From Syntrophobacterales bacterium (GTDB taxonomy: Bacteria > Desulfobacterota > Syntrophia > Syntrophales > CAMTWB01): 64,000 nucleotides of DNA. The translations under genes were made by a program, and so were the position numbers. Numbering within the stretch: position 1 is the stretch's first letter; each line of letters begins with the position of its first letter. Below the pieces are notes generated by a model that saw nothing but the letters and a program-made list of their open reading frames with translations, did no database searches and was not told where the DNA came from. The stretch covers positions 5,542 through 69,541 of the forward strand of contig JBBIJM010000004.1 of NCBI GenBank assembly GCA_037445955.1. Reading direction: 5' to 3'. Of this stretch, positions 5,522 to 24,217 are shown in pieces.

Positions 5522-5550
5522 CCCCGCCGGAGCAGCAAGAGGAGGAGACA

Positions 5551-6771
5551 ATGGAGATACCGAAGTTCAAGGCGTCAGGCAAGATGAAGGAGATCATGAC
5601 CACCTATTACATCGAGGCGAAGACCGCCCGGGAGGCGGGGAAAAAGGTGGCCTGGATCACCAGCGGCGGCCCGGTTGAGCCGCTTATCGCTATGGACGTA
5701 ATCCCGGTTTATCCGGAAAATCACGGGGCCATGATCGGCGCCGCCAAAATGGGGGTCGATCTCTGCGAGAAGGCTGAGGCGATGGGTTATGCCCCGGATC
5801 TCTGTTCCTACGCCCGGGCGGATATCGCCTGCGCCCCGACGAGCGGCGGCCCGATCGGCGGGCTCCCCGCGCCGGATATGCTCATCTGCTGCAACAACAT
5901 CTGCGGAACCGTCCTCAAATGGTACGAAATCCAGGCCCGTTATTTTCAGGTGCCCCTCTTTATCCTGGACACCCCGTTTACCCACAAAACCTATACCCCG
6001 GAGGCCAAAAGTTACGTCCTGGCCCAGTTTGCCGAGCTGATCGAGTTTCTCGAGAGCCATACTAAAAAGAAGTTCGATTACGACCGGATAGGAGAGGTGG
6101 GACGGTATTCCCTCGAGGCCCAGCGGCTCTGGCAGGAGGTCCTGGACGCCTCGGCCAACCGGCCGGCGCCTATGTCGGCCTTTGACGCCTTTTTCCATCT
6201 GGCCTTGATCGTCACCCTGAGGGGAACGGCGAAGGCGGTGGAATACTACCGCATCCTCCTGGATGAGGTCAAAGACAGGGTGGCCCGGGGGATCGGCGCG
6301 ATTCCCAGCGAGCGCTACCGTCTCCTCTGGGATAATCTGCCCGTCTGGTACAAGACCAGGTGGCTCTCGGATAAATTCGCCTCCCTGGGGGCCTGTCTGG
6401 TCGCCGATACCTACACCTCCGCCTGGTGCGGTTCGCTGGCTTACATCCGGGAGGACAATTTCCTCGAATCCCTGGCGGAAGGCTACACGAGAATCTATCT
6501 CAATATCGGAATCGACCAGATGGCCCGGGAGGTGATCAAAATGGCGGACAAATACGCAATCGACGGCCTCGTCATCCACTCGAACCGGAGCTGCAAACCG
6601 TACTCCTTCGGCCAGTACGACCTCAAGCGGATTCTTGGGGAAGAGCGGGGGATCCCGTCGCTTATCATCGAGGCGGACATGGTCGACGAGCGCCAGTTCT
6701 CCCAGGCCCAGATAGAAACCAGGATCGAGGCCTTCATCGAGATGCTCGCCGCCGCGAGACAGACGGGCTGA
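5551..6771 (+). CDS. 2-hydroxyacyl-CoA dehydratase / benzoyl-CoA reductase family subunit (HgdA/BcrC-like)
   Basis: The ATG at 5551 is preceded by GAGGAGGAG. Segments DLCSYARAD, CNNICGT and HSNRSCKPYS resemble the HgdA/BcrC family. The track's longer 5458 start overlaps the upstream gene. Confidence 0.6.
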   Translation: MEIPKFKASGKMKEIMTTYYIEAKTAREAGKKVAWITSGGPVEPLIAMDVIPVYPENHGAMIGAAKMGVDLCEKAEAMGYAPDLCSYARADIACAPTSGGPIGGLPAPDMLICCNNICGTVLKWYEIQARYFQVPLFILDTPFTHKTYTPEAKSYVLAQFAELIEFLESHTKKKFDYDRIGEVGRYSLEAQRLWQEVLDASANRPAPMSAFDAFFHLALIVTLRGTAKAVEYYRILLDEVKDRVARGIGAIPSERYRLLWDNLPVWYKTRWLSDKFASLGACLVADTYTSAWCGSLAYIREDNFLESLAEGYTRIYLNIGIDQMAREVIKMADKYAIDGLVIHSNRSCKPYSFGQYDLKRILGEERGIPSLIIEADMVDERQFSQAQIETRIEAFIEMLAAARQTG

Positions 6772-8920: not shown

Positions 8921-8956
8921 AAAAAGGCCTCCGGCTTTAAGCCGGGGGCCTTTTTT
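8921..8956 (+). terminator. rho-independent terminator after groEL (possibly bidirectional)
   Basis: AAAAA, then GGCCTCCGGC (8926-8935), loop TTTAA, GCCGGGGGCC (8941-8950), then TTTTTT. This gives a 10-bp stem with one G-U pair. It sits between the convergent groEL and glpC genes. Confidence 0.75.
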
Positions 8957-8968
8957 CGCTTATGAGAA

Positions 8969-10183
8969 CTAGGGCCTTGATCCGAGGGCATCCCGGAGAA
9001 CCTCGACGGGATGTCTCACCTCAAGACCGGTTAACGAACGGATCTGCATCCGGCAGCCTTCGCATTCCGAAACAATAATATCCGGTTTGATCCTCTCTGC
9101 GGCCCTGGTCAGATCCCGGCCGATGGCCTGGGAGATGTCGTATTTCTCCTTCTTGAAGCCGAACGCCCCGGCCAGGCCGCAGCAGTCCGCCTCAAGCAGA
9201 TCGAGCTTAAGCCCGGGAATCAACGAGAGAAGTTCGAAGGCGGGCAGCCCGATATTCAGAGCCTTAAGATGACAGGGGACGAAATAGGCCGCCTTCTTAT
9301 CAAGCGGGGAAAGGCCCCGGGAGAGTGCCGCCCGGCAGTCCTCGTTTAAGCTCAGGTATTCGAAAATGTCGAAGATATGACCTGCCGCCTCCCGGGCCCC
9401 GGGCAGGGCGAGGATCCGGTCGTATTCGTGGCGGATCATGAGCCCGCAGCTTGGCGAGGCAAAGACAATATCCCGGCCCCGGGAGATAAGCTCCCCGAAA
9501 GACCGGAGATTGTAATTCCCCAGCCGCGCCGCCCCGGCCAGATCGCCGTGGCCGAGAAGCGGGATGCCGCAGCAGTCCTGCGGGGGCAGGATCACCTTTC
9601 TGCCGCAGGCCTCAAGGACCTCTACCGTCGCCCTTCCGACATCCACCTCGTGGACGTTGATGTAGCAGCCGTAGAAATAGCCGACGGTTATTTCTCCGGA
9701 AGAATTCCCGGGTCGGGAGCGGAACCACCGCCGAAACGACTGGGACTCATAAGGGGGCAGGTTCATTCTTCCGTCTATCCGCAAGAAACGATCGAGAAAC
9801 CATTTAACCGGGCGGCTCGTAAGCAGGGGATTCACCAGGGGGGCGAGAAGCGAGCCCAGGCCGTTTAGCCGATGGCTATGGGTCAGAAGCCAGTCCCGAA
9901 ACGGCCTGCCCTGCTCGTCGAGATATTTGGCCCGGGCCAGCAGGTTGAGCTCGGAGACCGGCACCCCGGAGGAGCAGACGGTTTCGCAGAGACGGCAGCC
10001 GAGGCACAGCTCGATCCAGTTGTCAACGGACGATTCTCCCGGATTCCGGAACCGCTCCGCCCCCGGCCCAGCCTGTTTCGGACCGGGGAACCGTCCCGTC
10101 ACCCGGGAGACCGGGCAGATGGACATACAGGTTGCGCAGCGGACACAAACATCGCAGGCCGGTTTTATCTCTTTGATGCTCAT
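8969..10183 (-). CDS. glpC: anaerobic glycerol-3-phosphate dehydrogenase subunit C (Fe-S)
   Basis: Two ferredoxin-type clusters (CVRCATCMSICP, CLGCRLCETVCS) followed by Cys-rich CCG-type repeats. It is the last gene of a glpA-B-C order, with a 4-nt overlap with glpB. Confidence 0.8.
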   Translation of the reverse strand: MSIKEIKPACDVCVRCATCMSICPVSRVTGRFPGPKQAGPGAERFRNPGESSVDNWIELCLGCRLCETVCSSGVPVSELNLLARAKYLDEQGRPFRDWLLTHSHRLNGLGSLLAPLVNPLLTSRPVKWFLDRFLRIDGRMNLPPYESQSFRRWFRSRPGNSSGEITVGYFYGCYINVHEVDVGRATVEVLEACGRKVILPPQDCCGIPLLGHGDLAGAARLGNYNLRSFGELISRGRDIVFASPSCGLMIRHEYDRILALPGAREAAGHIFDIFEYLSLNEDCRAALSRGLSPLDKKAAYFVPCHLKALNIGLPAFELLSLIPGLKLDLLEADCCGLAGAFGFKKEKYDISQAIGRDLTRAAERIKPDIIVSECEGCRMQIRSLTGLEVRHPVEVLRDALGSRP

Positions 10184-11400
10184 AATTCGCAGGCCCGTCT
10201 GGCGGCGGCATAGCCGGAGGCGATTTCGATGCCCTCCCGGGAGGTCTCCTCGATGGAGCTGTGGCAGGCCAAGATGGTCCCCGCCGCCCGGAGGTTCTCG
10301 AATACCGGTTTCCCTTCCCCGTCCACCGGCTGAAATTTCTCGTTTACCATCACCCCGGCAAAGTGGAGAGGATGAACGGAAGTCGAAAAGAAGCGTTTGT
10401 TAAACCAACCCCCCCGGGAGGAAGGCTTCTTCAGGGGGAGATCGAAGACAGGTTCCCTGATCCCCTCTTCATCCGCCAGGAGCCCGCCCCCCAGGAAACG
10501 GCCCGTAGCCAGGATGCAGGCCTCACAGGTAAAGGTCCTGCTGAGCGGGGCATGATATACGGTAACCCCCTTTATCCTTCTTCCTTCCCTGAGAACGGAC
10601 ACCACCGCCTGACCCTGGAGAAGCCTTACCCCCCGGGCCAGGAGGTGCCCTTTGAACCTGTTGAAAACCCTCATCCCCGGAATCGAGGGGGGAAGGATGG
10701 GGATTTCGAAGACCTTGAGCTTCGTTTCCGATTCGAGTTCCCTTAGAACCTGGGCGGGGGATCTCACCCCTAGGAGGGCGGGAAGCCCTACCGCCTCCTC
10801 CCCTGCCCAGCGCTTTTTGATTCCGTAGGCAAGCTCCCCTGTAAAACCGGGCTCCTCCATAAGCCGGGCAATGGCCGTGGCGGTGATCCCGCCCTGGTCC
10901 GCCCGGGGCAGGGGGATGGTGATTCCCCGGGCCTTTAAATGGTGGGCGACATACTCGGCAAAAAAATCCTTGAATCCCTCAAAACCTACGATCAAGGTCT
11001 TCCCCCAGTCGGCATCTATACCTCCCAACATGGTCGCCGGGACAAGGTAGGCGGGGTGCCTGGTCCCGGCACCGGTGGGGATGAGGCTGTTTCTTCCCCC
11101 GGGAGCGGAAAAATCGTAAGGGGGAGGGAAAAGGGAAACGAAGGATCTTAAGGCCTCTTCGATCCCCTGCCAGCCGGCCAGCGCGTAGGGGTGGCGGGGG
11201 TTGTCCCCGATCCAGGCCAGGACGTCTTCCTTGAGGCTGTCCCGGGATGCCCTGCCCAAAATATCGACGGTGTTGGAGAGGATCCCCAGGGAACCGATCC
11301 CTTTCCCTACAATCAACACCCGCCGGCCCGCCTCGGAGGCGGTTTTGGCCGCCATGAGGCCGGAGAGGCCGAGGCCGATCACAATAACGTCAAAGCGCAT
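10180..11400 (-). CDS. glpB: anaerobic glycerol-3-phosphate dehydrogenase subunit B
   Basis: The N-terminus MRFDVIVIGLGLSGL resembles E. coli GlpB (MRFDTVIMGGGLAGL). The gene lies between glpA and glpC. Confidence 0.8.
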   Translation of the reverse strand: MRFDVIVIGLGLSGLMAAKTASEAGRRVLIVGKGIGSLGILSNTVDILGRASRDSLKEDVLAWIGDNPRHPYALAGWQGIEEALRSFVSLFPPPYDFSAPGGRNSLIPTGAGTRHPAYLVPATMLGGIDADWGKTLIVGFEGFKDFFAEYVAHHLKARGITIPLPRADQGGITATAIARLMEEPGFTGELAYGIKKRWAGEEAVGLPALLGVRSPAQVLRELESETKLKVFEIPILPPSIPGMRVFNRFKGHLLARGVRLLQGQAVVSVLREGRRIKGVTVYHAPLSRTFTCEACILATGRFLGGGLLADEEGIREPVFDLPLKKPSSRGGWFNKRFFSTSVHPLHFAGVMVNEKFQPVDGEGKPVFENLRAAGTILACHSSIEETSREGIEIASGYAAARRACEL

Positions 11401-11407
11401 AAGATCC

Positions 11408-12949
11408 CTACACCCTGCCTTCCCCGGACAGTTGAAAGAGCCCCTTGTAAATCGATTCGATCAGTTCCCCCTCCCTTAAGGCCGCCCCCCAGAGCACCGG
11501 CCAGGTCCCCTTCCAGCGCTCCTCCAGAAACCCTTTCAATATCTCGTTCGAATCATCCGGGGCCAGGTTCAGACGATGCAGGACCCCGAGCAGCCGGTAG
11601 ACGCAGAACCCCCCCTGACAGGTCCCCTTGGCCAGCCTAGTCCGGTGGAGGATATCCTGGATGTCCGGAAGTCTCTCTCCCTTAAGTACCCCCTCGATCT
11701 CCTCCCTGGTCACCAGCTCGCATTCACAGAGGATCTCCCCGGCGGCGCCGGCGGCCGCGGCCAGGCCCTTCAACCTCTCTTTCAGGCCGTGCCTGCCTTG
11801 CGCCCCGGGCAGGGGGATCAAATGGGTCGTGGCGGACCCCGCGAGGCCTAACTTCTCCGAGATATGATCGACCACCTTCTCCGCCATGAGCCGGTAGGTG
11901 ATCAGTTTTCCGCCGACGATGGAGACGAGGTTTTCCAGACGATCCCTCTGGCCATGATCGATAAGGGCAAAACCCCGGCTTAAGGACCGGTCTCCGTGAT
12001 CGGCGCCGGTCTGGAGAAGCGGCCTGATCCCCGCATAGGCCCGGGTTATCCTCGTCTCCTTAATCACCGGCAGGAGCCGGGCCAACTCCCGGATCAGAAA
12101 CGAAACCTCCCGGGTGGTGGCCTCGGAATGGTCCGGGTCCTCCGAGCGGATCGAGGTGGTTCCCAGGATAGACACGGTGTCGTTCGGGACGACAATGTCC
12201 CCGTCCCCGGGCGGTCGGAGCCGGTTGATGATCCGGTGGCTGATCCGGCGGTTGGTGATGAGCATCGATCCCTTGGACATGGCCATGGGGATGGAAAGAC
12301 CCGCCGGGCCAAGCAGCCGGTTTGCCCAGGCCCCGGTGGCATTGACCACAAACGAGGCGGAAATCGTATAATCCTCTTTGTCTATCAGGCCCCTGGCCCT
12401 GGCCCCCTTGACCCAGCCGTCTTTCGTCAGGAGTTCGCAGGCCTCGGTATGGGAGAGGCATTTGGCCCCCCGGGCGCAGGCGTCGCGGATATTTTCCATC
12501 ACCAGGGCAAAGGGATCGACGGCCCCGTCGGGAACCGCCACCGCCCCCAGGAGAGAGGGGTTGAGCTCCGGCTCGATCTCCCGGGCCTCGGCCGCGGACA
12601 GGTTCCGGGCCGGGATCCCGGCGGCCAGACATCCCTCCAGGAATCTCTTGTGAAATTCGAGACCGTCTTCCGGCAGGGAAACGAAGAGGCCACCGGTTTC
12701 TTCGAGGCAGTGGGGGGCGATCCGGCGGAGGATGGCGTTTTCCCGGATACATTCCCGGGCGGATTCGGGATCGTTAACCACATAGCGGCCGCCGCTGTGG
12801 AGCAGGCCCTGGTTTCTCCCGGAGGCCCCGGAGGCATAATCCCCCTTCTCGACAAGCACCACCGGGATCCCCCTCAAGGCCAGGTCCCGGGCAATGCCGG
12901 CCCCCGTCGCCCCGCCGCCTATCACAAGCACCTCGGTCTGCAGTTTCAT
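11408..12949 (-). CDS. glpA: anaerobic glycerol-3-phosphate dehydrogenase subunit A (FAD)
   Basis: The N-terminal dinucleotide fold is VLVIGGGATGAG. The C-terminal BFD-like 2Fe-2S segment (CECELVT ... CQGGFC) is typical of anaerobic GlpA. Confidence 0.85.
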   Translation of the reverse strand: MKLQTEVLVIGGGATGAGIARDLALRGIPVVLVEKGDYASGASGRNQGLLHSGGRYVVNDPESARECIRENAILRRIAPHCLEETGGLFVSLPEDGLEFHKRFLEGCLAAGIPARNLSAAEAREIEPELNPSLLGAVAVPDGAVDPFALVMENIRDACARGAKCLSHTEACELLTKDGWVKGARARGLIDKEDYTISASFVVNATGAWANRLLGPAGLSIPMAMSKGSMLITNRRISHRIINRLRPPGDGDIVVPNDTVSILGTTSIRSEDPDHSEATTREVSFLIRELARLLPVIKETRITRAYAGIRPLLQTGADHGDRSLSRGFALIDHGQRDRLENLVSIVGGKLITYRLMAEKVVDHISEKLGLAGSATTHLIPLPGAQGRHGLKERLKGLAAAAGAAGEILCECELVTREEIEGVLKGERLPDIQDILHRTRLAKGTCQGGFCVYRLLGVLHRLNLAPDDSNEILKGFLEERWKGTWPVLWGAALREGELIESIYKGLFQLSGEGRV

Positions 12950-13007
12950 CTGGTCCTTTCTCCTGCCCCGGCCAAGCCCTGATAAATCACGTCCCTGCCC
13001 AGTTGAT

Positions 13008-14246
13008 CTACTCGACGAGGATCATCTTCATAAGTTCGATAGGGGTGGTCTTATAGCGGTCCGCCATTTCCTTGAGGGTTTCTCCTTCCTTCTGGGAGAG
13101 ACCTTTCTCGGCCATTCTCCTTGTAAGGTAATTCAGGTCGAGGTTGTGCTCCCGGGCCAGATCGGCGAGGGTCCTGGCGCCTATACCCTTCCCTTCGAAC
13201 CGGGCCCGCACCGTTTCCTCGGTATAGGCGGGCTTGCTCCCGCCGGCAGCGGCGGGCGTCTCCGGCTTCGCCGCCTGGGGAGAGGGACGGTCGACGGGAG
13301 GGATTCCCTTCGCCCCGGGCCCGGTCTGCATCTCTTTCCGCTTCTCCTCGTAACCAGAGGGCTTTTCGACCAGGCTCATCTGCATAATCTGAATCGGCGT
13401 CGTCTTTACCGGCTGCCGGTCGGCCAGCTGCCGGATCGTCTCATTGTCCCTGGGGACAACGCCCCGGGCAACCAGCCTCTTTGTCATCCCCTCGAGATCG
13501 AGATTGTTCTCCCGGGCTACCTGGGCCAGGGTCTTGGCCCCGATTCCCCTCCCTTCAAACCTCTCCACCACCAGGTCTTCCGTAAAAACCGTCGCCTTCG
13601 GGAGGGCTTTCTCGAACCTCTTGATCTTCATATAGATTTCCATCGGGGAGAGGGAGTTGCGAGCGCCGATGAGCGCCAGGGTATTGTTTGCGTCCTCCAC
13701 GACAACCTGCTCCTTCTTGAGCTCCGCCAGCGCCTCGTCCAGATTCATGCCCAGCCGGGCGGCGAATTTTGCCAGGGAAAGGTCTTCGGCGTGGGCAATG
13801 GGCGGTTCGAATTCCGGAGACGTCACCCAGGAGGCCTTGACCCATCTGTTGAAGGCCATAAATTGGTCGAAGGGGAAGATATTCAGATAGGCGCCGCCTG
13901 TAAAAAACGCAACGACGACAACGGAGATGATCAGCTCCCGGGGGTAATGGAGCCCCCCTTTTACCCTGGCCACGAGATAACCGGTAAAGGCCCGCCAGTT
14001 TAGAATAAGATGGTAAATGCCGATCACCAGAAACAGGAGGCTGAGCACGATATGGATGCTGCCCCATTCCTCCTTCAGGAGGCCGAGGAACCGCCACTCG
14101 GTCCAGGAGGCGATCCTCCCCGGCGGAACGATAAACAGCATGATTCCCGAAAAGGCCACGAGCGCAAAACTAAAGGTCGTGATGAAGGATGTCAGGCTAC
14201 GCTTATGTAACCCTCTGTTTTTTTTATCTTCCGCCTTATCCGTCAT
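13008..14246 (-). CDS. membrane protein: DUF4405-like three-TM N-terminus plus three ~60-aa soluble repeats
   Basis: Hydrophobic helices lie at about aa 20-42, 62-85 (with His65 and His79) and 103-125. Repeats lie at aa 153-212, 227-294 and 347-412, separated by a Pro/Ala-rich linker. The gene ends 58 bp upstream of glpA on the same strand. Confidence 0.6.
   Translation of the reverse strand: MTDKAEDKKNRGLHKRSLTSFITTFSFALVAFSGIMLFIVPPGRIASWTEWRFLGLLKEEWGSIHIVLSLLFLVIGIYHLILNWRAFTGYLVARVKGGLHYPRELIISVVVVAFFTGGAYLNIFPFDQFMAFNRWVKASWVTSPEFEPPIAHAEDLSLAKFAARLGMNLDEALAELKKEQVVVEDANNTLALIGARNSLSPMEIYMKIKRFEKALPKATVFTEDLVVERFEGRGIGAKTLAQVARENNLDLEGMTKRLVARGVVPRDNETIRQLADRQPVKTTPIQIMQMSLVEKPSGYEEKRKEMQTGPGAKGIPPVDRPSPQAAKPETPAAAGGSKPAYTEETVRARFEGKGIGARTLADLAREHNLDLNYLTRRMAEKGLSQKEGETLKEMADRYKTTPIELMKMILVE
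13011..13208 (-). repeat. intragenic repeat copy 3 (RFEGKGIGARTLADLAREHNLDL...TTPIELMKMILVE)
   Basis: Aligns residue by residue with copy 2 and is recognisable at the DNA level. Confidence 0.8.
13365..13568 (-). repeat. intragenic repeat copy 2 (RFEGRGIGAKTLAQVARENNLDL...TTPIQIMQMSLVE)
   Basis: Paralogous to copy 3. A more divergent copy 1 lies at about 13611-13790. Confidence 0.8.
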
Positions 14247-14416
14247 GATGCCCCTCCTTTAACTGCCCATTGATTGCCGGGAGTTCCCCGGATCAATCCC
14301 CGCTTCCCTCCCGCCTTACAGACCGGCTATATAGCACACCGGCTTACGGGAATACAATATCTCTTGACCGGCAGTATCCCCCGCCGTATAGTTCCCTGAA
14401 GCAAAGGAAGACGCCA

Positions 14417-16351
14417 ATGATAAAGGCCGGATACGACCCGAAATTGAAGGTCGGGGTTATCGTCTCAAGCGAGGATCTGATCGGCAAGATAAACCGCCTG
14501 GCAAAATCACGGTGGGACCAGGTGCACACGAGGCTTATCTGCGGTCTCGATGAGGCCGTCCCGGTGGGCCGGGAGATGGAGGCCTCCGGCTGCGACGTCG
14601 TGATCAGCCGGCGGGGAACGGCGGAGATCCTGCGGGAAAAACTTACGATCCCCGTTTTGGCCCTCATGGCCAATCCCCTGGATATCCTCATCAGCATAAG
14701 AAAGGCGGTCATTTTCGGCAAACGGATCCTCATCACCAGTTTCAGAAAGCAAATGACCGGCATGGATATCCTGGAGGAGATATACCAGGTTAGGATCTTC
14801 CAGGGCATATATCATGACAGCCCCAGCTTGAATCAGGTCATCGGCAAGGCCCGGGAAAAGGGGGTGGAAGTGATCATCGGCGGCGGTGTTTCCATGAAAT
14901 TCGCCGACACTTACGGGCTTAAAGGGGTCGAGCTCTACATTTCCGAAGAGGCCGTGGCCTTTGCCGTCGAAGACGCCTTGGCCTTGGCGAGACTGAGGCG
15001 CCAGGAGCAGGAGAAGTCGCGGCGATACCAATGCATCATTGATTCCTCATCCGACGCGATCCTCTCGGTCAATCGGGAAGGCGTCCTCACCACAATGAAC
15101 AGGGCCGCTCGGGATCTCTTGCGGATCCGTGATTGTCAGGAGGAATCTCACCGCCTGATCGATTACCTGCCGGAATCCGATTTCCGGCGGATTTTCCAGA
15201 CAAAACAACCCCTCTTGAACAAATTGGAAAAGGTATCAAACCTTCTCTATCTGGCAAACCATTTCCCGATCAACGTCAATGAAGAGGTGGCCGGGGTGGT
15301 TTCGATCATGAAAAATACCGCAAACGTCATCAAAGACGAAAACGAGGTCCGGAGAAACTTCGCCAAGGGCCTCGTGGCGAGGTTCACCATCGATGACCTG
15401 ATCCATAAAAGCACCGGGATGGCCGAAGCGGTGAGGAAGGCGAAAAGATACGCCCTGTCCGATTCCACCGTCCTGATAACCGGGGAGACGGGCACGGGCA
15501 AGGAGGTCCTGGCCCAGGGCATCCATAACCTAAGCGACCGGTCCAGAGGGCCTTTCGTCTCTCTCAACTGCGCCGCCCTGCCGGAGCAACTTTTGGAAAA
15601 CGAGTTGTTCGGTCATGAAGAGGGGGCCTTCACCGGCTCCCGGAAGGGGGGCAAGATCGGCCTTTTTGAGCTGGCCCATACCGGAACGATCTTTCTTGAC
15701 GAGATCGCCTCAACCCCTCCGGGCGTCCAGGCGACCCTCCTGCGGGTCCTTGAGGAAAAAAAGGTGATGAGGATCGGCAGCGACCGGCTCATTCCCATCG
15801 ACGTCCGGGTGCTGGCCGCCTCCAACAGAGACCTCGCCGCCGAGGTCCGGGCGGGACGATTCCGGGATGATCTCTTCTTCCGGCTGAACGTGCTTTCGAT
15901 CCGGCTTGCCCCCCTGCGGGAGAGGATGGAAGAACTGCCCGTCATCGTCGCCCATTGTGTGAATAAGATAGCCGCCAGGTACAGGATCCCGCCCTTGTCC
16001 CTCCCGGAGGACTGCCTAAGGCGGCTTATGTCCTACGTTTGGCCGGGCAACGTCCGGCAGGTCGAAAACTTCCTGGAAAGACTGATCCTCGCCGCCGACT
16101 CTTTCACCCCCGGGGTCTTCGACGAGCTTTTTGAGGAGATTTGCCAGGTCACCCTGCCTGAGCCGGCCCGGGAGACGTCGGGGAAAAAACATCAGCTCGA
16201 GAGACAGGCCCCGCCCGAGGGCACGAACCTCGAGGAGATCCTGCTTGAGGCCCGGTTCTGCAAAACCAAAGCGGCCGCTTTGCTTGGCATCAGCAGGACC
16301 ACCTTATGGCGCAAACTGAAAAAACACGGGCAGAACCGACCGGACCGATAA
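14417..16351 (+). CDS. sigma-54-dependent transcriptional activator, PrpR-N-type sensor + PAS + AAA+ + Fis HTH
   Basis: ATG at 14417 follows AAGGAAG. The AAA+ core has GETGTGKE (Walker A), ENELFGHEEGAFTGS (GAFTGA-type loop) and FLDEI (Walker B). The C-terminal HTH is LLGISRTTLWRKLKKHG. The N-terminal ~200 aa resemble the propionate-catabolism activator (PrpR_N) domain. Confidence 0.85.
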   Translation: MIKAGYDPKLKVGVIVSSEDLIGKINRLAKSRWDQVHTRLICGLDEAVPVGREMEASGCDVVISRRGTAEILREKLTIPVLALMANPLDILISIRKAVIFGKRILITSFRKQMTGMDILEEIYQVRIFQGIYHDSPSLNQVIGKAREKGVEVIIGGGVSMKFADTYGLKGVELYISEEAVAFAVEDALALARLRRQEQEKSRRYQCIIDSSSDAILSVNREGVLTTMNRAARDLLRIRDCQEESHRLIDYLPESDFRRIFQTKQPLLNKLEKVSNLLYLANHFPINVNEEVAGVVSIMKNTANVIKDENEVRRNFAKGLVARFTIDDLIHKSTGMAEAVRKAKRYALSDSTVLITGETGTGKEVLAQGIHNLSDRSRGPFVSLNCAALPEQLLENELFGHEEGAFTGSRKGGKIGLFELAHTGTIFLDEIASTPPGVQATLLRVLEEKKVMRIGSDRLIPIDVRVLAASNRDLAAEVRAGRFRDDLFFRLNVLSIRLAPLRERMEELPVIVAHCVNKIAARYRIPPLSLPEDCLRRLMSYVWPGNVRQVENFLERLILAADSFTPGVFDELFEEICQVTLPEPARETSGKKHQLERQAPPEGTNLEEILLEARFCKTKAAALLGISRTTLWRKLKKHGQNRPDR

Positions 16352-16363
16352 TGGTGTCAGATA

Positions 16364-16489
16364 ATGGTGTCAGGTCTACACTCTTGACAAGAGTTAAAAA
16401 AAGGGCGGAGGGCGGTGTTTCTTTTTCCTGACTCGACCGCTGATAAATATCAAGAAAATATCGAGTGAATAGTGTAGACCTGACACCAT
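16364..16489. repeat. perfect 19-bp inverted repeat separated by 88 bp
   Basis: ATGGTGTCAGGTCTACACT (16364-16382) is the exact reverse complement of 16471-16489. The left arm is preceded by a tandem 13-bp repeat, ATAATGGTGTCAG x2 (16348-16373), which overlaps the regulator stop codon. Confidence 0.9.
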
Positions 16490-16495
16490 GCTAGG

Positions 16496-16551
16496 TGAAA
16501 CTTATTGTTTCATCTATGAAACTTAATGTTACTCTGAAACTGACTGTTTCA
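16496..16551. promoter_or_regulatory. three tandem 17-bp dyads TGAAAC-N5-GTTTCA (candidate enhancer/UAS for the sigma-54 activator)
   Basis: Site 1 at 16496-16512 is perfect, site 2 at 16517-16533 is TGAAAC-N5-GTTACT, and site 3 at 16535-16551 is perfect. They lie 57-112 bp upstream of the -24/-12 element. Confidence 0.6.
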
Positions 16552-16607
16552 TCGTCGTCTAAAGGTTAATTAGCCGATTTCTCTGGACATTCCTTCCGAC
16601 CGCCTGC

Positions 16608-16623
16608 TGGCACAAAGATCGCA
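16608..16623 (+). promoter_or_regulatory. sigma-54 (-24/-12) promoter
   Basis: TGGCACAAAGATCGCA matches TGGCAC-N5-TTGCW with correctly spaced GG and GC. It sits 54 bp upstream of the first operon ATG and next to a sigma-54 activator gene. Confidence 0.75.
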
Positions 16624-16676
16624 TGGATGACTCAGTTGTCGTCTTCGGCAATTAAACCTTCGCATCAGGTATCGTC

Positions 16677-17810
16677 ATGGCCGGGTACCCGAAAATATTG
16701 CACACCGAAGAGGCGATGCGGGATGGTTTGCAGATCGAAGATAAAGATATTCCCGCCGCCGACAAGATCCTTCTCTTGGACGCCCTGTCCGAAACCGGCC
16801 TCAAGGAAATCGCCGTGGGCTCCTTTGTCTCTCCCCGGTGGACGCCGCAGATGGCCTCGATCGAGGAGGTGGTGAGGGGATTCACCCCCCGGCCCGGGGT
16901 CCGATACACCTATCTGGCTCTAAACGATAAGGGCCGGGAACGGGCCCGGGCCTTCATCCCCCCTTTGTCGCCCCCGGTTGCCGACTATTCGACCAGGGTG
17001 GATATGTGCGATGTCTTCGCCCAGAGAAACAACAACCGGACCCAGCTCAAGCAGATCGAGAGCTGGTCCGGGGTGGTCACTCGGGCGAAGGCCGCAGGCC
17101 TTACCGAAGGCGGCATGGCGCTCAGCAACCCCTGGGGCTCCAACTGGACCGGGGATGTCACCCAGGATGAGCGCCTGGGGATGCTCGAGAGGATGCATCG
17201 GCTCTGGACCGAGGCGGGATTTACCGTAACCAGGATCGGTTTTTTCGACGCCATGAGCTGGAATATGCCCGGCCAGGTGGCCGCACAACTGGCGGTGATC
17301 AAAGAGCGCTGGCCTTCCATCACCGATTTTCAGCTCCACCTTCACAACGGCCGGGGAACGGCCCTCACCTCGGTCTGGGCCGCCCTCGGGGTTCTGGACA
17401 GCGGAGACACCCTGCGGCTCCAGAGCGCAATCGGCGGCATGGGCGGCTGCCCCTATTGCGGAAACGGCCGGGCGGCGATGATGATCCCCACGGAGGATCT
17501 GATGCATCTTCTTGAGGAAACGGGTATTTACACCGGCGTCGATCTTTACCGGCTGGTAGAGGCGGTCTGGCTTGCCGAAAAAATAGTCGGCCATCCCCTC
17601 TCCGGCCATGTCTCCAAGGCCGGGCCGAGGCCGAGGGGAAGGCGCCTCTACCCCCTTGACCTGCCCTGTATCGAGACCCTGGATCAGGCAAAACACTTTA
17701 TCCTAGGCCCCGGGGCCTATGAAGGAGCCCCTTCCCCCTGGCCGGAGCCGATCAGAAGCCACCAGCGGCCGGATTCACAGTTGAAAAAGGAGACAATATG
17801 CAGCGATTAA
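16677..17810 (+). CDS. HMG-CoA-lyase-like (HMGL/DRE-TIM family) lyase with C-terminal extension
   Basis: Motifs MRDGLQIE, HLHNGRGTAL and GGMGGCPYCG correspond to the RDGLQ, HxH and GGCPY motifs of the HMGL family. At 377 aa it is about 70 aa longer than typical members. Confidence 0.7.
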   Translation: MAGYPKILHTEEAMRDGLQIEDKDIPAADKILLLDALSETGLKEIAVGSFVSPRWTPQMASIEEVVRGFTPRPGVRYTYLALNDKGRERARAFIPPLSPPVADYSTRVDMCDVFAQRNNNRTQLKQIESWSGVVTRAKAAGLTEGGMALSNPWGSNWTGDVTQDERLGMLERMHRLWTEAGFTVTRIGFFDAMSWNMPGQVAAQLAVIKERWPSITDFQLHLHNGRGTALTSVWAALGVLDSGDTLRLQSAIGGMGGCPYCGNGRAAMMIPTEDLMHLLEETGIYTGVDLYRLVEAVWLAEKIVGHPLSGHVSKAGPRPRGRRLYPLDLPCIETLDQAKHFILGPGAYEGAPSPWPEPIRSHQRPDSQLKKETICSD

Positions 17811-19591
17811 ACGGCGGACAGATCATCGTCGATTATCTGATCCAGGAGAAGGTTCCCTACCTGTTCGGGCTGTGCGGCCACGGCAACATCAGCTTCCTCG
17901 ATGCCCTCTATGAGAGATCCCGGGAAATCAAGACCGTCTCGGTCCATCATGAATCGGTCTCCGGGTTTATGGCCGACGTGTTCTACCGGGTGTCCGGGAG
18001 GCCGACTGCGACCTTTACCTCCTGCGGGCCGGGCTCGGCAAACCTGCCGATCTGCCTGGCAAACTCCTTCTTCGATTCGGTGCCCTTTCTCGCCGTCACC
18101 GCCAATGTTCCGACGAGCCAGTTCAATCGGGGGGCCTTTCAGGAAACCTACCGCCATTATCAGGCCGACTTCCCCTCGACGGTTAAGGCCTACTGCAAGA
18201 AAGTCTTCCAGCCGACCCGGGCGGACATGGTTCCCCTGGCCATCCGGCAGGCTTGGAAAACCATGGTGACCGGACGCCCCGGCCCGGTAGTCCTCGATGT
18301 TCCCTTCGACATCTTCAAGGAGGAAACGGACCTGGAAATGCCCCAGGCCGCCCTGTGGAACGGCAATATCAGCTGCCGCGCCGGCGCCGACCCGGAAGGG
18401 GTCGTCAAGGCGGTAGATATGCTGCTTCAGGCGGAAAAACCCGTTATCCTGGTAGGCCAGGGGGTAAAGTACGCCCAGGCAACCGGAGAGCTCCTCGCCC
18501 TGGCGGAGCGGCTGAAGATCCCCGTCGCCTCTTCCGCAAGCGGCATGGGGGCTCTCGACGCAAGGCATCCGCTCGCCCTGGGCCTGGTGGCCAGAAACGG
18601 AACCTATCAGGCCAACCACGCCGCCCGTCAGGCGGACGTGCTGCTGGCTTTGGGGGTAAGATTTGACGACCGGACCTCAAGCAGTTGGATTCCCGGCTAC
18701 TCTTTTTCCATACCTCCCACCCGGCTTATCCACGTGGACATAGACCCCGAGGAGATCGCAAGAAACTACCCTGTTGCCCTGGGGCTGATGGCCGACGTCA
18801 AGACCTTTCTCAGACAGTTACTGGCGGAGCTCGACCGGCGGAAACTCGCGGCGGAGATTCCGCCGGGCCGGGCTGACTGGCTTGCGGCGATAGACGGCTA
18901 CCGGAGAGAGTGGGAGGCCTTTATCGCCCCGGGGTTCCGGACGGACACAACCCCGATCCACCCCCAGCGGGCGGCCTGGGAGATCGACCGGGTCCTCCCG
19001 GAAGAGGCGATCCTGGTTAGCGACATCGGCGTCCACCACAACTGGCTGATCCAGTTCTGCCGGCCGAGACGCCAGGACTCCCTAATAGGCTCCATGGGGT
19101 TCGGCCCGATGGGCTTCGGGGTAGCCGGGGTGCTTGGGGCGAAACTCGCCGCCCCGGACCGCCCCTGCGTCTCGGTATGCGGAGACGGGGCCTTCTTCAT
19201 GCACGCAAGCGTCCTGGGCACGGCCTTCGAGTACGACATCCCGGTGGTGTGGGTGGTGTGGAACAACTACGCCTACGCCTCTATCCGGGGTCTCCAGCGG
19301 GGCTATTTAGAGGGCCGGGAACTTGCCACCGACTTCCGCCATCCGGCGACCGGCGAGCCCTACAATCCGGATTTCGCCGCGATGGCCCGCTGTGCCGGTA
19401 TCGACGGGGTAAGGGTGGATACGGCCAAAGACTTAGGCGAGGCGATCGAGCAGGCCGTCAAAGCGGGCAGGCCCTGTCTGATCGACGCCGACATCGCAGG
19501 CGAGATGAATCCGGCGGGCGCGGGGGTCTGGGAGTTGCCCGGCCTCGGCCATGGCCGGCCGGCGATTGGCGTCCGTTACGACGGCAGGTAA
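17798..19591 (+). CDS. thiamine-diphosphate-dependent enzyme (acetolactate synthase / IolD-like family)
   Basis: 597 aa with the three-domain ThDP layout. The N-terminal PYR domain carries HESVSGFMADVFYR, and the C-terminal ThDP motif is GDGAFFM...NN. A good RBS (AAAGGAG) precedes the ATG at 17798. Confidence 0.75.
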   Translation: MQRLNGGQIIVDYLIQEKVPYLFGLCGHGNISFLDALYERSREIKTVSVHHESVSGFMADVFYRVSGRPTATFTSCGPGSANLPICLANSFFDSVPFLAVTANVPTSQFNRGAFQETYRHYQADFPSTVKAYCKKVFQPTRADMVPLAIRQAWKTMVTGRPGPVVLDVPFDIFKEETDLEMPQAALWNGNISCRAGADPEGVVKAVDMLLQAEKPVILVGQGVKYAQATGELLALAERLKIPVASSASGMGALDARHPLALGLVARNGTYQANHAARQADVLLALGVRFDDRTSSSWIPGYSFSIPPTRLIHVDIDPEEIARNYPVALGLMADVKTFLRQLLAELDRRKLAAEIPPGRADWLAAIDGYRREWEAFIAPGFRTDTTPIHPQRAAWEIDRVLPEEAILVSDIGVHHNWLIQFCRPRRQDSLIGSMGFGPMGFGVAGVLGAKLAAPDRPCVSVCGDGAFFMHASVLGTAFEYDIPVVWVVWNNYAYASIRGLQRGYLEGRELATDFRHPATGEPYNPDFAAMARCAGIDGVRVDTAKDLGEAIEQAVKAGRPCLIDADIAGEMNPAGAGVWELPGLGHGRPAIGVRYDGR

Positions 19592-19616
19592 TTTCGAAGG
19601 GAAACAGGAGGATCAA

Positions 19617-21032
19617 ATGTCAAGGACCCTAACGGAGGCAGAGAGAAGCCTGGCCCGGGAGCTGCTTGCGCGGGCCAGAGAGGCCATGGCGGCCATCGAG
19701 CATTACGACCAGAAACAGGTGGACCGGCTCTGCCAGGCCATGGCCTGGCAGCTTTACAACGAACAAAATGCCGTCAGGCTGGTGAACATGGCGGTCGATG
19801 AAAGCGACCTGGGGGATCGGGTTCCGGCCAAAAGGTTCAAGGTCCTGGGGGTGCTCCGGGATGCCCTGAGGCTAAAGAGCATCGGGATCATCGAGGAGAT
19901 CCCCGAAAAGGGAATCGTAAAATACGCCAAACCGGCGGGGGTCATCTGCGCCTTGAGCCCTACGACCAATCCCCTGGTGACCCCGATGAGCGTGGGAATC
20001 TACGGGATCAAATGCAAAGACGCGGTCATTTTCAGCCCCCATCCCGCAAGCAGGAAGACCTCGACGGAAATCGTCCGCCTGATGCGGCTTGCCCTCGAGA
20101 AGGCCGGGGCGCCGGCGGACCTGCTCCAGTCGGTGGAGAAGCCGAGCATCCCCCTGGCCCAGGAGTTGATGACCCTCTGCGACCTCACCGTCGCCACCGG
20201 CGGCTCGGCGATGGTGAAATCCGCTTACAGCTCCGGAAAGCCGGCCTACGGCGTCGGGCCGGGGAACTCGACGATGGTGATCGACGAAACCGCCGACATC
20301 GAGGAGGCCGCCCGCAACACCCGGCTCAGCAAAACCAACGACAACGGCGCCGGCTGCTCCGCCGACGGGAACCTTGTCGTTCACGCCTCGATCTACGACC
20401 GGTTTCTTATCCAGTTGCAGAAGGAAGGCGGCTACCTCTGCACCGAAGGGGAAAAGGAGCTGGTCCGCCGGGTCTGGTGGGACGAGGAAGGCCACCGGAT
20501 CGTCAAGACCGTCGCCCGGCCGGCCTGGAAGGTGGCGGAGCTGGCGGGCTTCAAGCTCCCCGAAGGCAAGACCTTCCTCATCGTCAAGGAGGACAAGATC
20601 GGCCGGGAGCACCTCTTCTCCAGCGAAAAACTGGGCACGATGCTCGCGATTTTCAAGTACCAAGGCGAGTTCGAGGCCGCCTTGGATATGGTGCGGCGGC
20701 TCTACGAGGTGGGGGGCAAGGGTCATTCCTGCGGGATATATTCGTTCAACGACGATCATATCCACCGGCTCGCCCTGATGGCGCCGGTCAGCCGGATCAT
20801 GGTGAGACAGCCCCAATCGAAGGCCAATGCGGGCTCCTTCACTAACGGCATGCCGATGACGGCCAGTCTGGGCTGCGGCTACTGGGGAGGAAATATCACC
20901 AATGAAAACATCCACCTGAAGCATTATATGAACGTTACCTGGGTCAGCCGGCCGATCCCGGAGGACCGGCCGACGGAAGAGGAGCTGTTCGGCGAATTTT
21001 ACGGAAGCGAGATTTTCGAAGCGGGAGAATGA
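19617..21032 (+). CDS. CoA-acylating-type aldehyde dehydrogenase (EutE/PduP/SucD-like)
   Basis: ATG at 19617 follows CAGGAGG. It is ~470 aa with the ALDH fold and a candidate catalytic Cys in NDNGAGCSAD, resembling acylating ALDHs. Confidence 0.65.
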   Translation: MSRTLTEAERSLARELLARAREAMAAIEHYDQKQVDRLCQAMAWQLYNEQNAVRLVNMAVDESDLGDRVPAKRFKVLGVLRDALRLKSIGIIEEIPEKGIVKYAKPAGVICALSPTTNPLVTPMSVGIYGIKCKDAVIFSPHPASRKTSTEIVRLMRLALEKAGAPADLLQSVEKPSIPLAQELMTLCDLTVATGGSAMVKSAYSSGKPAYGVGPGNSTMVIDETADIEEAARNTRLSKTNDNGAGCSADGNLVVHASIYDRFLIQLQKEGGYLCTEGEKELVRRVWWDEEGHRIVKTVARPAWKVAELAGFKLPEGKTFLIVKEDKIGREHLFSSEKLGTMLAIFKYQGEFEAALDMVRRLYEVGGKGHSCGIYSFNDDHIHRLALMAPVSRIMVRQPQSKANAGSFTNGMPMTASLGCGYWGGNITNENIHLKHYMNVTWVSRPIPEDRPTEEELFGEFYGSEIFEAGE

Positions 21033-21093
21033 GGTCGTTTTATCTCCCTTTTTAGGTTCTAAAAGCGATTTACCCCACCAGGAGGGCTTGGCC

Positions 21094-23058
21094 ATGCTTA
21101 AATCTCGGGCAGATCGGGCGGTATTCATCGAGGAAGGGGCCGGCAAGAGGGTCCTCAGCGGGTTCTGGGATCTCCTGGTCAAGACGATCGCCCTGGCCAC
21201 CGCGATCTTCTACCTCTATACCGCCCTGGTCGGCCAGCTCGGGCCGGAATACCACCGGGGGATATTTGTTCTGGCCATCGTGGTGATGATCTTTCTGCTC
21301 TATCCGGCCACCTCCCGTTCCCCGAAAGACCGCCCCAGCCTTTTTGACATCCTTATGGTATTGCTAACCATCCTCTCGGTCGGCTACTGGATCTGGGAGT
21401 ACACCGACCTGGTCTATCGGGTGGGGGCCTACCTCCCCCGGGACTTCTGGTTCGGGGTGATCGGGCTTATCGTCTGCCTGGAGGCGGGGCGCCGGGTGAC
21501 GGGCTGGCTGATTCCCATCCTGGGGGGTCTCGCCCTGCTCTACGGCCTCTACGGCAATTATATCCCCGGGGTTTTCGGCCATCGCGGCTTTACCATCAAA
21601 CGTCTCGTCGAGTATATATACCTTACCTCGGAGGGCCTCTTCGGGGTGATGGCCAGCGTTTTACCTTCCTATGTCCTGCTGTTCCTCCTTTTGGGGGCGT
21701 TCCTCAAGGTCTCCGGGGTGGGGCAGTTCTTTATCGATGTCCCCATGTCCTTAGCCGGCCGTTCGACGGGAGGACCGGCGAAGGTGGCGGTGGTGGCCTC
21801 CGGTCTGTTCGGCTCGATCAACGGGAGCGTGCTGGCCAATACGGTAAGCACTGGATCGATCACGATCCCCCTGATGAAAAAGGTGGGCTACCGGCCCCAC
21901 GTGGCCGCCGCAGTGGAAACGGCCGCCTCGACCGGCGGGATGATCATGCCGCCGATCATGGGGGCCGGGGCCTTTCTCATGGTGGAGCTCACCGGCGTTC
22001 CCTACACCCAAATCGTCAAGGTTTCGTTCATCCCGGGGATCCTCTTCTTCCTGTCGATCTTTTTCATTGTCCATTTCGAGGCGAAACGCAGCAGGATCCC
22101 CGGCATCCCGAAGGCGGAAATCCCCGTATTTAAAGAGGTGATCCGCCGGGGCTGGTATCTCATCGCCCCCTTTGTGATCCTCGTGGTCCTGCTCTTTTCC
22201 GGTTTCTCCCCCAACTACTCCGCTTTCTGGACCATCGTCTCGGTGATTGTGGTGAGCTGGTTTCGCCCCGAGACCCGGATGGGCCTGCGGCAGGTGGCAA
22301 ACTCCCTCATCGACGGGATGATGTCCGCCCTCACCGTAGGCAGCCTGATGGGGGCCATCGGCATCTTTATCGGCATCGTGGTGATCACCGCGGCGGGCCT
22401 GAAATTCTCCAACGCTCTGATCGGCCTGTCCGGCGGCAACCTGTTTCTGGCGCTTGCACTGGTGGGACTTGCGGCTCTGGTACTGGGCATGGGAATGCCC
22501 ATCACCCCGGCCTACCTGCTGCTCGCCGTGCTCGCCGCCCCGGCCCTAAAAACGATGGGCGCCGATCTGCTGGCGGCCCACCTGGCCATCTTCTGGCTCA
22601 GCGCTACTTCCAATATAACCCCGCCGGTCTGTCTCGGGGCCTATTGCGCGGCAGGCATCGCCAACGCCAGCCCCTGGAAGACGGCGTTTACCGCCTTCAG
22701 GTTCGGGCTGATCCTCCTGCTCATGCCGTTTCTCTTCATCTTCGAAGACCACTTCCTCCTAACCGGCCTCTGGTACCAGAATCTCTGGGCGGTCGTCTTC
22801 ACCACCCTGGGGGTCATCGGCTACTCCGCCTGGACGATGCGTTACGCCTTCACCGAGACGACGATTCCCGAATTTTGCCTGCTTTTCGCCGTCTGGATCG
22901 CCCTGCTCTGGCCTATGTGGCAGGTGGAAGCTATCGGCCTGGTTTTGGGGGCGCTTTTCATAATTTTGCATTGGCTCAGATACCGGAATCTCCGAAGGCC
23001 ACCCGAGTTCGAAAGCGGGCCTCGGGAAAAGCCCCTGGGACCTGGAAAGGGTGCCTAG
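21094..23058 (+). CDS. TRAP transporter fused permease (TAXI-type 4TM/12TM fusion)
   Basis: A ~650-aa polytopic membrane protein with many hydrophobic helices. It is followed by a TAXI receptor gene. ATG at 21094 lies 7 nt after CAGGAGGG. Confidence 0.75.
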   Translation: MLKSRADRAVFIEEGAGKRVLSGFWDLLVKTIALATAIFYLYTALVGQLGPEYHRGIFVLAIVVMIFLLYPATSRSPKDRPSLFDILMVLLTILSVGYWIWEYTDLVYRVGAYLPRDFWFGVIGLIVCLEAGRRVTGWLIPILGGLALLYGLYGNYIPGVFGHRGFTIKRLVEYIYLTSEGLFGVMASVLPSYVLLFLLLGAFLKVSGVGQFFIDVPMSLAGRSTGGPAKVAVVASGLFGSINGSVLANTVSTGSITIPLMKKVGYRPHVAAAVETAASTGGMIMPPIMGAGAFLMVELTGVPYTQIVKVSFIPGILFFLSIFFIVHFEAKRSRIPGIPKAEIPVFKEVIRRGWYLIAPFVILVVLLFSGFSPNYSAFWTIVSVIVVSWFRPETRMGLRQVANSLIDGMMSALTVGSLMGAIGIFIGIVVITAAGLKFSNALIGLSGGNLFLALALVGLAALVLGMGMPITPAYLLLAVLAAPALKTMGADLLAAHLAIFWLSATSNITPPVCLGAYCAAGIANASPWKTAFTAFRFGLILLLMPFLFIFEDHFLLTGLWYQNLWAVVFTTLGVIGYSAWTMRYAFTETTIPEFCLLFAVWIALLWPMWQVEAIGLVLGALFIILHWLRYRNLRRPPEFESGPREKPLGPGKGA

Positions 23059-23117
23059 AAGATCGCCGGATCTGGAAATGACAACCTAAACCTTATAAGG
23101 AAAGGGAGGTTCTGACG

Positions 23118-24140: not shown

Positions 24141-24217
24141 GGTCTGCCCTTCGGGACACCGGGTTCAGGAGCCCCCCCGGGGAGGGACAGGGGGTTGCCA
24201 GTCGAAAGGAACAGTCG

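Follow-up and report, generated by a model that had tools for sequence, protein, structure and literature searches.

The 64,000-nucleotide stretch of DNA from a Syntrophobacterales bacterium analysed here (contig JBBIJM010000004.1, positions 5,542 to 69,541; hereafter the window) carries a gene for a 412-residue membrane protein of the DUF4405 type directly upstream of glpABC, and this placement raises the question of whether the protein serves GlpABC or belongs to a family with a function of its own. An earlier reading made from the letters by themselves (the sequence-only reading) had taken it for a possible membrane anchor or quinone-coupling partner of GlpABC. We give about an even chance to a different explanation, in which the protein is a FezC-like homodimeric haem-b conduit that carries electrons across the membrane and is equipped with periplasmic docking domains. 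The arguments come from the membrane module and its conserved residues, from the C-terminal repeats and their predicted placement, and from the distribution of the family and of its linkage to glpABC.

The membrane module and its histidines

The protein matches the Pfam family DUF4405 (PF14358) at 62.1 bits against a cutoff of 26.7 (E=7.2e-17) and over profile positions 2-66 of 66, in agreement with the sequence-only reading of a DUF4405-type, cytochrome-b-like membrane protein. Hydropathy resolves three hydrophobic segments (~aa 17-40, 59-82 and 103-122), and SIHIVLSLLFLVIGIYH is present on the second transmembrane (TM) helix with His65 and His79 spaced 14 residues apart, so that the three helices and the histidine pair described in that reading are both recovered. 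His65 and His79 are invariant in 77/77 aligned relatives from many phyla. Beyond the membrane, His152 is retained in 78/80 relatives and Glu154 in 76. The loop motif PPGRIAxW..W, Asn83, Pro125 and Trp140 are also near-invariant in the alignment of 81 proteins, in which His14 is not conserved. The proteins that share the conserved residues belong to Bacteroidota, Acidobacteriota, Planctomycetota, Syntrophales, Arcobacteraceae and Verrucomicrobiota.

Several lines of evidence connect this module with haem. A six-TM, four-His DUF4405 protein from Oscillospiraceae binds haem b, and the ferrosome protein FezC also binds haem b; in a model of FezC, homodimerisation creates haem sites like those of DUF4405 (PMC11334425). 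The cytochromes b of hydrogenase and formate dehydrogenase co-match the DUF4405 model (PMC12727194). Within the family, 50/79 relatives weakly match Ni_hydr_CYTB (PF01292), with alignments at profile positions ~102-168 and all scores below the 30.1-bit cutoff (best E 2.2e-6). Together these results uphold the grouping of DUF4405 with di-haem cytochromes b that the sequence-only reading had given. The window protein itself has no match to Ni_hydr_CYTB at E<=0.1, and no Pfam match of the NarI/HdrE type was found for it. His65 and His79 are putative bis-His haem ligands. Judged by its composition of three TM helices and two membrane histidines, the window protein is a half unit of the DUF4405 core, and a homodimer would recreate a core of six helices, four histidines and two haems. 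Among the relatives, P0023 (520 aa) and similar representatives have the three-TM module with neither TM histidine and carry five repeats; these variants may be non-haem derivatives of the family.

Topology was judged from the distribution of charge. The mean net charge per segment, taken over the family, is +3.1 at the N-terminus, +1.5 in loop 1, +4.8 in loop 2 and -1.0 after TM3, a pattern that argues for an N-in, C-out orientation and thus for repeats in the periplasm. The Fe-S (iron-sulfur) domain of NapH is cytoplasmic. In NapH-like proteins that are fused to the same repeat, the repeat lies behind a fifth TM helix that follows the Fe-S domain, which agrees with a periplasmic location. 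The assignment by the positive-inside rule in the sequence-only reading is accordingly strengthened, and the repeats are probably periplasmic.

The repeats, their relatives and the family

The soluble part of the protein consists of three repeat units. Copies 2 and 3 (aa 216-296 and 340-412) are 53% identical over 74 aa (E=6e-28), and their Smith-Waterman score (z=37) is reached by 0/1000 shuffles. Copy 1 is marginal when pairwise comparison is considered alone, with E=0.027 and 31/1000 shuffles. A hidden Markov model (HMM) built only from the R2/R3 units of ~75 relatives, and hence free of circularity because no R1 unit entered it, nevertheless detects all 75 R1 units and finds that of the window protein at E=5e-8. 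Alignment of the R1 profile to the R2/R3 profile with hhalign gives a probability of 99.3% (E=1.3e-20) over 57 columns. These two tests show that copy 1 is a true homologous copy, as had been supposed when three repeats with a divergent first copy were described. The repeat length of 60 aa given at that time holds for the shared core of ~55-60 aa; R2 and R3 extend to ~75 aa by an added N-terminal helix and GxGxG loop. The Pro/Ala-rich linker placed between copies 2 and 3 is likewise recovered, as a segment that is predicted to be disordered and that differs in length and sequence between orthologues.

AlphaFold models give every unit one and the same arrangement, with short beta bridges and four helices, and a stand-alone AlphaFold2 (AF2) model of repeat 3 is compact and helical with a predicted local distance difference test score (pLDDT) of 90 and a predicted template-modelling score (pTM) of 0.73. 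No Cys, His or Met is conserved in the units, which are therefore unlikely to carry a redox cofactor. A flavinylation site was considered for the GxGIGxKT loop together with helix-hairpin-helix and Walker-A readings, and all three were set aside, since the spacing is wrong and conservation is lacking at the key residues. The flavinylation motif is [S/T]GA[S/T]; in the repeat loop the pattern is GxGxG[KR]x[TP]L, in which the Ala is not conserved. FMN_bind and ApbE are absent from the Pfam matches of the window protein and from the 25 commonest neighbour families.

The repeat resembles IF2_N (PF04760), which is matched by 54/79 relatives at E<=0.05 over profile positions 3-38, in R1 and R2. Several relatives score above the gathering threshold of 25.3 bits, among them L007 (40.6), L033 (33.8), L012 (32.9), L039 (29.9) and L023 (29.2). 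By profile, the repeat is IF2_N-like, with membership proven for the relatives and the more divergent copies of the window protein falling short of it. The repeat region of the window protein has no Pfam or NCBIfam match above threshold, and the domain is not modelled as such by current Pfam. Searches of PDB sequences with a repeat-unit profile (A2) and a whole-family profile (A4) returned no IF2 chain at E<=10 and E<=5, respectively, and yielded only de novo designed proteins and weak LysM matches. The LysM (PF01476) match in the window protein reaches 15 bits against a cutoff of 20.9 over profile positions 4-25 of 43, and with the A2 profile LysM proteins of the PDB appear only at E 0.02-0.3. 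Weak matches to LysM, ScdA_N and helix-turn-helix (HTH) families recur, all below their cutoffs.

The family is large and widespread. A word-indexed protein search returned 13 relatives. A scan of GTDB species genomes gave 117 loci, of which 80 were fetched, all encoding proteins no more than 39% identical to the window protein and drawn from Bacteroidota, Acidobacteriota, Planctomycetota, Syntrophales, Arcobacteraceae, Verrucomicrobiota and Spirochaetes. When 1.84 billion cluster representatives were scanned exhaustively with the repeat profile (HMMER), 1,280 were matched at E<=1e-3, a lower bound for the subfamily with clustering at 50% identity. Among the 150 best-scoring of these 1,280, for which architectures were inspected, almost all are three-TM modules with two to five repeats, fragments of such proteins, or NapH-like polyferredoxins; the form with three repeats is confined to the clade of the window protein (P0001-P0005). 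The NapH-like P0012, P0013 and P0069 (~520 aa) have four TM helices and two Fe-S motifs and, behind these, a fifth TM helix followed by an R1-like unit that a Pro/Ala linker joins to an R3-like unit. Between repeat 3 of the window protein and the C-terminal unit of P0012 the identity is 63%, and the C-terminal units of P0004, which is of the DUF4405 type, and of the polyferredoxin P0012 are 94.8% identical. An identity this high suggests that the two types of membrane protein have recently swapped the module of linker and repeat.

Neighbouring genes in the fetched loci, called with a simple open reading frame (ORF) finder of our own, show themes that are each limited to one clade: FeoB in Arcobacteraceae/Campylobacterales, NifU/NifS and MetX/MetY in Pirellulales, a DUF2202 ferritin-like protein in Phycisphaerae, and an outer-membrane-protein-like product in Acidobacteriota. 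In Arcobacteraceae/Campylobacterales feoB adjoins the family gene (L054 5851-7893, L059 274-2310, and also L049), twice directly upstream on the same strand with gaps of ~65-100 bp and otherwise convergently, and this adjacency hints at a connection with iron uptake in that group. P0013 is surrounded by Zip, cation-efflux, DUF2202, MamS/MamX-like, DsbD/thioredoxin and ars genes; with the FezC/ferrosome connection, this context gives a weak hint of an iron-related function. A conserved small downstream ORF, suggested by L001 and L003, was discounted because the ORFs are neither homologous nor recurrent. L091 (49-690) and L092 (437-667) share an upstream gene with no Pfam match and the motif LDRAY..AL.LSNQPDKPAAAV, which is absent from the window.

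The glpABC locus

The anchor proposed in the sequence-only reading would lead one to expect that the linkage to glpABC is conserved, and on this point it failed. When GlpA, GlpB and GlpC were searched by tblastn against 84 family loci, only L004 gave matches, and this locus is 99.4% identical to the window at the DNA level. Downstream of the three-repeat orthologues that are 55-60% identical to the window protein, glpA was found in 0/3 loci with readable downstream DNA (L003, L091 and L092). In the opposite direction, the DUF4405 gene is absent from five other glpABC loci from metagenomes. A metagenome scan with GlpA returned only relatives of 40-47% identity, and closer ones came from a protein search; the closest operons (GCA_964457235.1, GCA_037441775.1 and a JGI contig, with GlpA 70-71% identical; L093, L094 and L096) carry, directly upstream of glpA, genes for a ugp-like ABC transporter (SBP_bac_1, two permeases and a MalK-type ATPase) and for a glycerophosphodiester phosphodiesterase (GDPD). 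The window has the cytochrome gene in place of ugp/GDPD, and no transporter nearby. The absence of the linkage elsewhere indicates that the adjacency of the DUF4405 gene and glpABC is recent and lineage-specific. From these comparisons the cytochrome is probably not a general subunit of GlpABC, and anchoring GlpABC cannot be the conserved function of the family; a lineage-specific functional recruitment to GlpABC may have occurred.

Within the window the three glp genes are well identified, since GlpA, GlpB and GlpC each score above the curated cutoff of at least one NCBIfam equivalog model, and GlpC is a CCG-domain protein in the Pfam scan (Table 1). The DUF4405 gene has a Shine-Dalgarno (SD)-like AAGGAGG 7 nt 5' of its ATG. 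The gap of 58 bp on the same strand that had been reported before glpA is exact. A terminator or an independent promoter there would have spoken against a joint transcript; terminator-like and promoter-like sites were looked for in this spacer and none was found, and its predicted RNA fold is unremarkable (z=+0.47). The hairpin that follows glpC is the probable end of the transcription unit, and these signals are compatible with co-transcription of the DUF4405 gene with glpABC, which is probable. The same locus with a 412-aa DUF4405 protein is present in the 99%-identical contigs L004, L097 and L098, and P0001 is 98% identical to the window protein.

Table 1. Coordinates of the features of the DUF4405-glpABC locus in the window
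Feature	Position	Strand	Basis or remark
DUF4405-type gene, 412-aa ORF with ATG start	13008..14246	-	ORF list, Pfam, SD
TM1, aa 17-40; Lys/Arg-rich N-terminus before TM1, predicted cytoplasmic	14127..14198	-	
DUF4405 (PF14358) match, aa 19-84; TM1, periplasmic loop with invariant PPGRIAxW, and TM2	13995..14192	-	
TM2, aa 62-82, with His65 (14052-14054) and His79 (14010-14012)	14001..14063	-	
TM3, aa 104-122	13881..13937	-	
Amphipathic helix aa 126-141 (AF2), then EPPxxHxE motif with His152 (13791-13793) and Glu154	13791..13871	-	
Repeat 1, aa 152-213, divergent copy	13608..13793	-	R2/R3 HMM, hhalign, AF2 pattern
Repeat 2, aa 219-295, with N-terminal helix and GxGxG loop	13362..13592	-	
Pro/Ala-rich disordered linker, aa 296-339	13230..13361	-	pLDDT <50 (aa 296-338)
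Repeat 3, aa 340-412, clade-specific copy; module also C-terminal in NapH-like polyferredoxins	13011..13229	-	
Spacer of 58 bp, DUF4405 gene to glpA	12950..13007	-	GGAGAAAGGA before glpA ATG
glpA	11408-12949	-	NCBIfam equivalog TIGR03377, 628.6 bits
glpB	10180-11400	-	NCBIfam equivalog TIGR03378
glpC	8969-10183	-	NCBIfam equivalog PRK11168
glpABC block	8969..12949	-	Downstream of DUF4405 gene
Terminator-like hairpin and T-run, directly 3' of glpC	8931..8945	-	
Divergent intergenic region	14247..14416	.	Sigma-70-like site 14364-14392 (+) serves regulator

The other gene neighbours at the locus are GroEL and a sigma-54 regulator. The latter is divergent from the DUF4405 gene, as had been noted, and is an activator of the PrpR_N/PAS/sigma-54 type whose start is most likely ATG 14417 and not TTG 14270. 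The divergent activator would predict a sigma-54 -24/-12 promoter upstream of the DUF4405 gene, but none was found there within 2 mismatches. The best sigma-54 match nearby is TGGCACAAAGATCGC at 16608-16622 (+), with one mismatch and 55 bp 5' of an HMGL-like gene at 16677; the number of matches of the one-mismatch type across the window is not above chance. The genes behind this site (HMGL-like, thiamine-pyrophosphate (TPP)-enzyme and aldehyde dehydrogenase) lie on the other side of the regulator, and the site is likely, from its position, the target promoter of the adjacent PrpR_N-type activator.

Strain variants bear on the same point. The segment of the window from 14550 to 25897 (11.3 kb) is absent in GCA_037440285.1 (L097) and in a Logan contig (L098), which are otherwise 97-99% identical to the window and encode a 100% identical GlpA. 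Within the segment lie most of the sigma-54 regulator and the HMGL-like, TPP-enzyme and aldehyde-dehydrogenase genes, and its far end falls within a Ligase_CoA gene. The junctions show no long direct repeat. Since both breakpoints truncate genes, L097 and L098 look like deletion derivatives. DUF4405-glpABC-groEL is unchanged in them while the regulator is truncated, and the regulator is thus not needed to maintain the block; from this arrangement it is unlikely to control DUF4405-glpABC. Elsewhere in the window, two adjoining HGD-D genes of the 2-hydroxyacyl-CoA dehydratase/benzoyl-CoA reductase type (4400-6771, +) lie between coaX and groEL, and this pair fits an anaerobic relative of the Thermodesulfobacteriota.

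Competing explanations and known systems

In the explanation to which we give about an even chance, each chain would contribute three TM helices with its N-terminus in the cytoplasm and with the two histidines of TM2 one near each membrane face. Two chains would pair as proposed for FezC to form the six-helix, four-His core, and in the dimer two bis-His haems b would lie one above the other through the membrane and serve as an electron wire. On the periplasmic side there would follow the amphipathic helix, His152/Glu154 and three cofactor-less beta-alpha-alpha domains related to the N-terminal domain of IF2, the last of them on a flexible Pro/Ala tether. By analogy, these domains may dock or recognise a partner or substrate in the periplasm and keep it close to the outer haem. 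At the level of the family such a function would be independent of GlpABC. In the lineage of the window, electrons from GlpC could enter at the inner haem; this coupling is not conserved, and we consider it doubtful.

A number of observations weigh against this explanation. The window protein has no match to IF2_N at E<=0.1. Foldseek comparison of its full-length model with the PDB gave nothing at E<0.5, and the top matches were sigma factors, which are typical multi-HTH noise. For the model of a single repeat, Foldseek against the PDB and BFVD likewise gave no match at E<0.5 and template-modelling scores (TM-scores) of <=0.43, a weak negative for a small helical domain. The membrane part of the AF2 monomer is only moderately confident, with pLDDT 50-77. 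His152 may alternatively serve as an axial ligand, in which case the number of haems would differ. The docking role of the repeats is drawn entirely from analogy. Finally, the neighbour census at +-1, +-2 and +-3 revealed no universal neighbour or partner.

On a rival reading, which goes back to the sequence-only one, the protein would be a dedicated fourth subunit of GlpABC that anchors the enzyme and takes electrons from GlpC to menaquinone or to an acceptor in the periplasm, in the manner of HdrE with HdrD and of DsrM with DsrK. This would account for a gene on the same strand 58 bp upstream of glpA, for a spacer in which neither a terminator-like nor a promoter-like site was found, for the terminator-like hairpin behind glpC, for a DUF4405-glpABC block that stays together in two genome arrangements of the species, and for the presence of a CCG-domain protein in GlpC, since CCG-domain proteins often pair with a membrane cytochrome b. 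We nevertheless regard it as unlikely. The linkage is absent at ~80 independent family loci, from 3/3 of the closer three-repeat orthologues and at 5 other glpABC loci, and the nearest glpABC operons have the ugp-like transporter and GDPD. The protein is also not of the NarI/HdrE type and has no such Pfam match, and its invariant features (the loop motif, His152/Glu154 and the repeats) lie on the predicted periplasmic side, which suggests that its business is on the side opposite GlpC. A version limited to this lineage, in which GlpABC recently captured a haem-b subunit that replaced ugp/GDPD and became a four-subunit enzyme passing electrons from GlpC through a di-haem wire to a periplasmic acceptor docked by the IF2_N-like repeats, is a speculation that we also hold to be improbable.

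The proposal that the protein is instead a stand-alone ferric or metal reductase facing the periplasm, with two haems feeding a metal site at His152/Glu154 and an incidental adjacency to glpABC, draws on the invariant His/Glu pair just outside the membrane, on the ties of FezC and DUF4405 proteins to ferrosome and iron clusters with FeoA and DUF2202, and on the position of P0013 among metal-homeostasis and thiol-redox genes. Ferric_reduct is weakly matched by 13/79 relatives, whose flanks include FeoB (4 immediate, 7 loci within six genes), NifU/NifS (4) and DUF2202 (3). Such iron-related neighbours make up ~10% of immediate flanks, however, with each type confined to one clade and few independent events; there is no iron theme at +-2 and +-3 and no iron gene near the window gene, and we judge this proposal to be distinctly unlikely. 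Highly improbable, in our estimate, is that the repeats are cytoplasmic and bind nucleic acid or protein, which would make the protein a membrane-tethered regulator, or that the protein is a non-redox LysM-like envelope tether with structural histidines. Resemblance to IF2_N, many weak matches to HTH families and LysM, and HTH regulators as the weak top Foldseek matches of the single repeat would favour this possibility, but the HTH and LysM matches all score under the Pfam cutoffs and extend over no more than part of the unit. The positive-inside statistics moreover place the C-terminus outside, in the NapH-like fusions an additional TM helix separates the repeat from the cytoplasmic Fe-S domain, and the two TM histidines are invariant, have the spacing typical of haem ligation and occur in a family proven to bind haem.

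It was not until 2024 that DUF4405 proteins became known as haem-b cytochromes, and most are without an assigned partner. The locus described here points to a large subfamily, spread over many phyla, for which the literature searched holds no description, and the occurrence of its repeat on both DUF4405 and NapH-like modules suggests a common periplasmic target. As regards glycerol metabolism, the outcome is largely negative. If a haem-b subunit was indeed captured by GlpABC, it would be a solution like that of HdrDE and DsrMK derived from an unrelated cytochrome and seen early in the evolution of an operon; in any event this unique operon offers a ready-made natural case in which to ask if a CCG-type dehydrogenase can be served by such a cytochrome.

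Comparison with known systems places the window protein among membrane modules for electron transfer while setting it apart from each. It resembles the DUF4405 protein of Oscillospiraceae in its Pfam match, in a helix with two histidines and in predicted electron transfer across the cytoplasmic membrane to extracytosolic acceptors. That protein, however, has six TM helices and four central histidines per chain, whereas the window protein has three TM helices and two TM histidines and possesses in addition the invariant His152/Glu154 and a C-terminal array of IF2_N-like units. The Oscillospiraceae protein is associated with apbE and flavinylation genes, and no ApbE or flavinylation-associated family is among the Pfam families reported for the neighbours of the window gene and its relatives. 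FezC (D. magneticus, Desulfurispirillum indicum) shares a short DUF4405-like membrane module that is proposed to homodimerise, but in FezC an N-terminal HMA domain accompanies two predicted TM helices, and it is encoded in fezABC operons with a P1B-6 ATPase; the window protein has no HMA match, three TM helices, predicted periplasmic repeats and no fez context.

The Ni_hydr_CYTB-type di-haem cytochromes b HyaC and FdnI/FdoI, and HdrE and DsrM as cytochrome-b partners of CCG proteins, likewise carry two histidines ~14 apart on one helix, one per haem, and are membrane partners of soluble or peripheral oxidoreductases. They differ in having at least four TM helices, all four ligands on one chain and conserved operon partners, whereas the partnership in the window is not conserved. 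The NapH-like polyferredoxins (Fer4_5, PF12801; NosR/PceC type) P0012, P0013 and P0069 contain the same linker and repeat module, and both they and DUF4405 proteins are membrane electron-transfer modules that pair with extracytosolic domains; the NapH-like proteins use Fe-S centres and not haem. In NosR/PceC the outer domain is a flavinylated FMN_bind, while the repeat of the window protein is without flavinylation motif or cofactor ligands. The N1 domain of IF2 is a protein-docking module on a flexible linker (PMC12297416), and the likeness to IF2_N consists in a ~50-aa domain on such a linker. IF2_N is cytoplasmic and belongs to the translation machinery, whereas the window-type repeat is predicted to be periplasmic, occurs in tandem and is fused to redox membrane modules.

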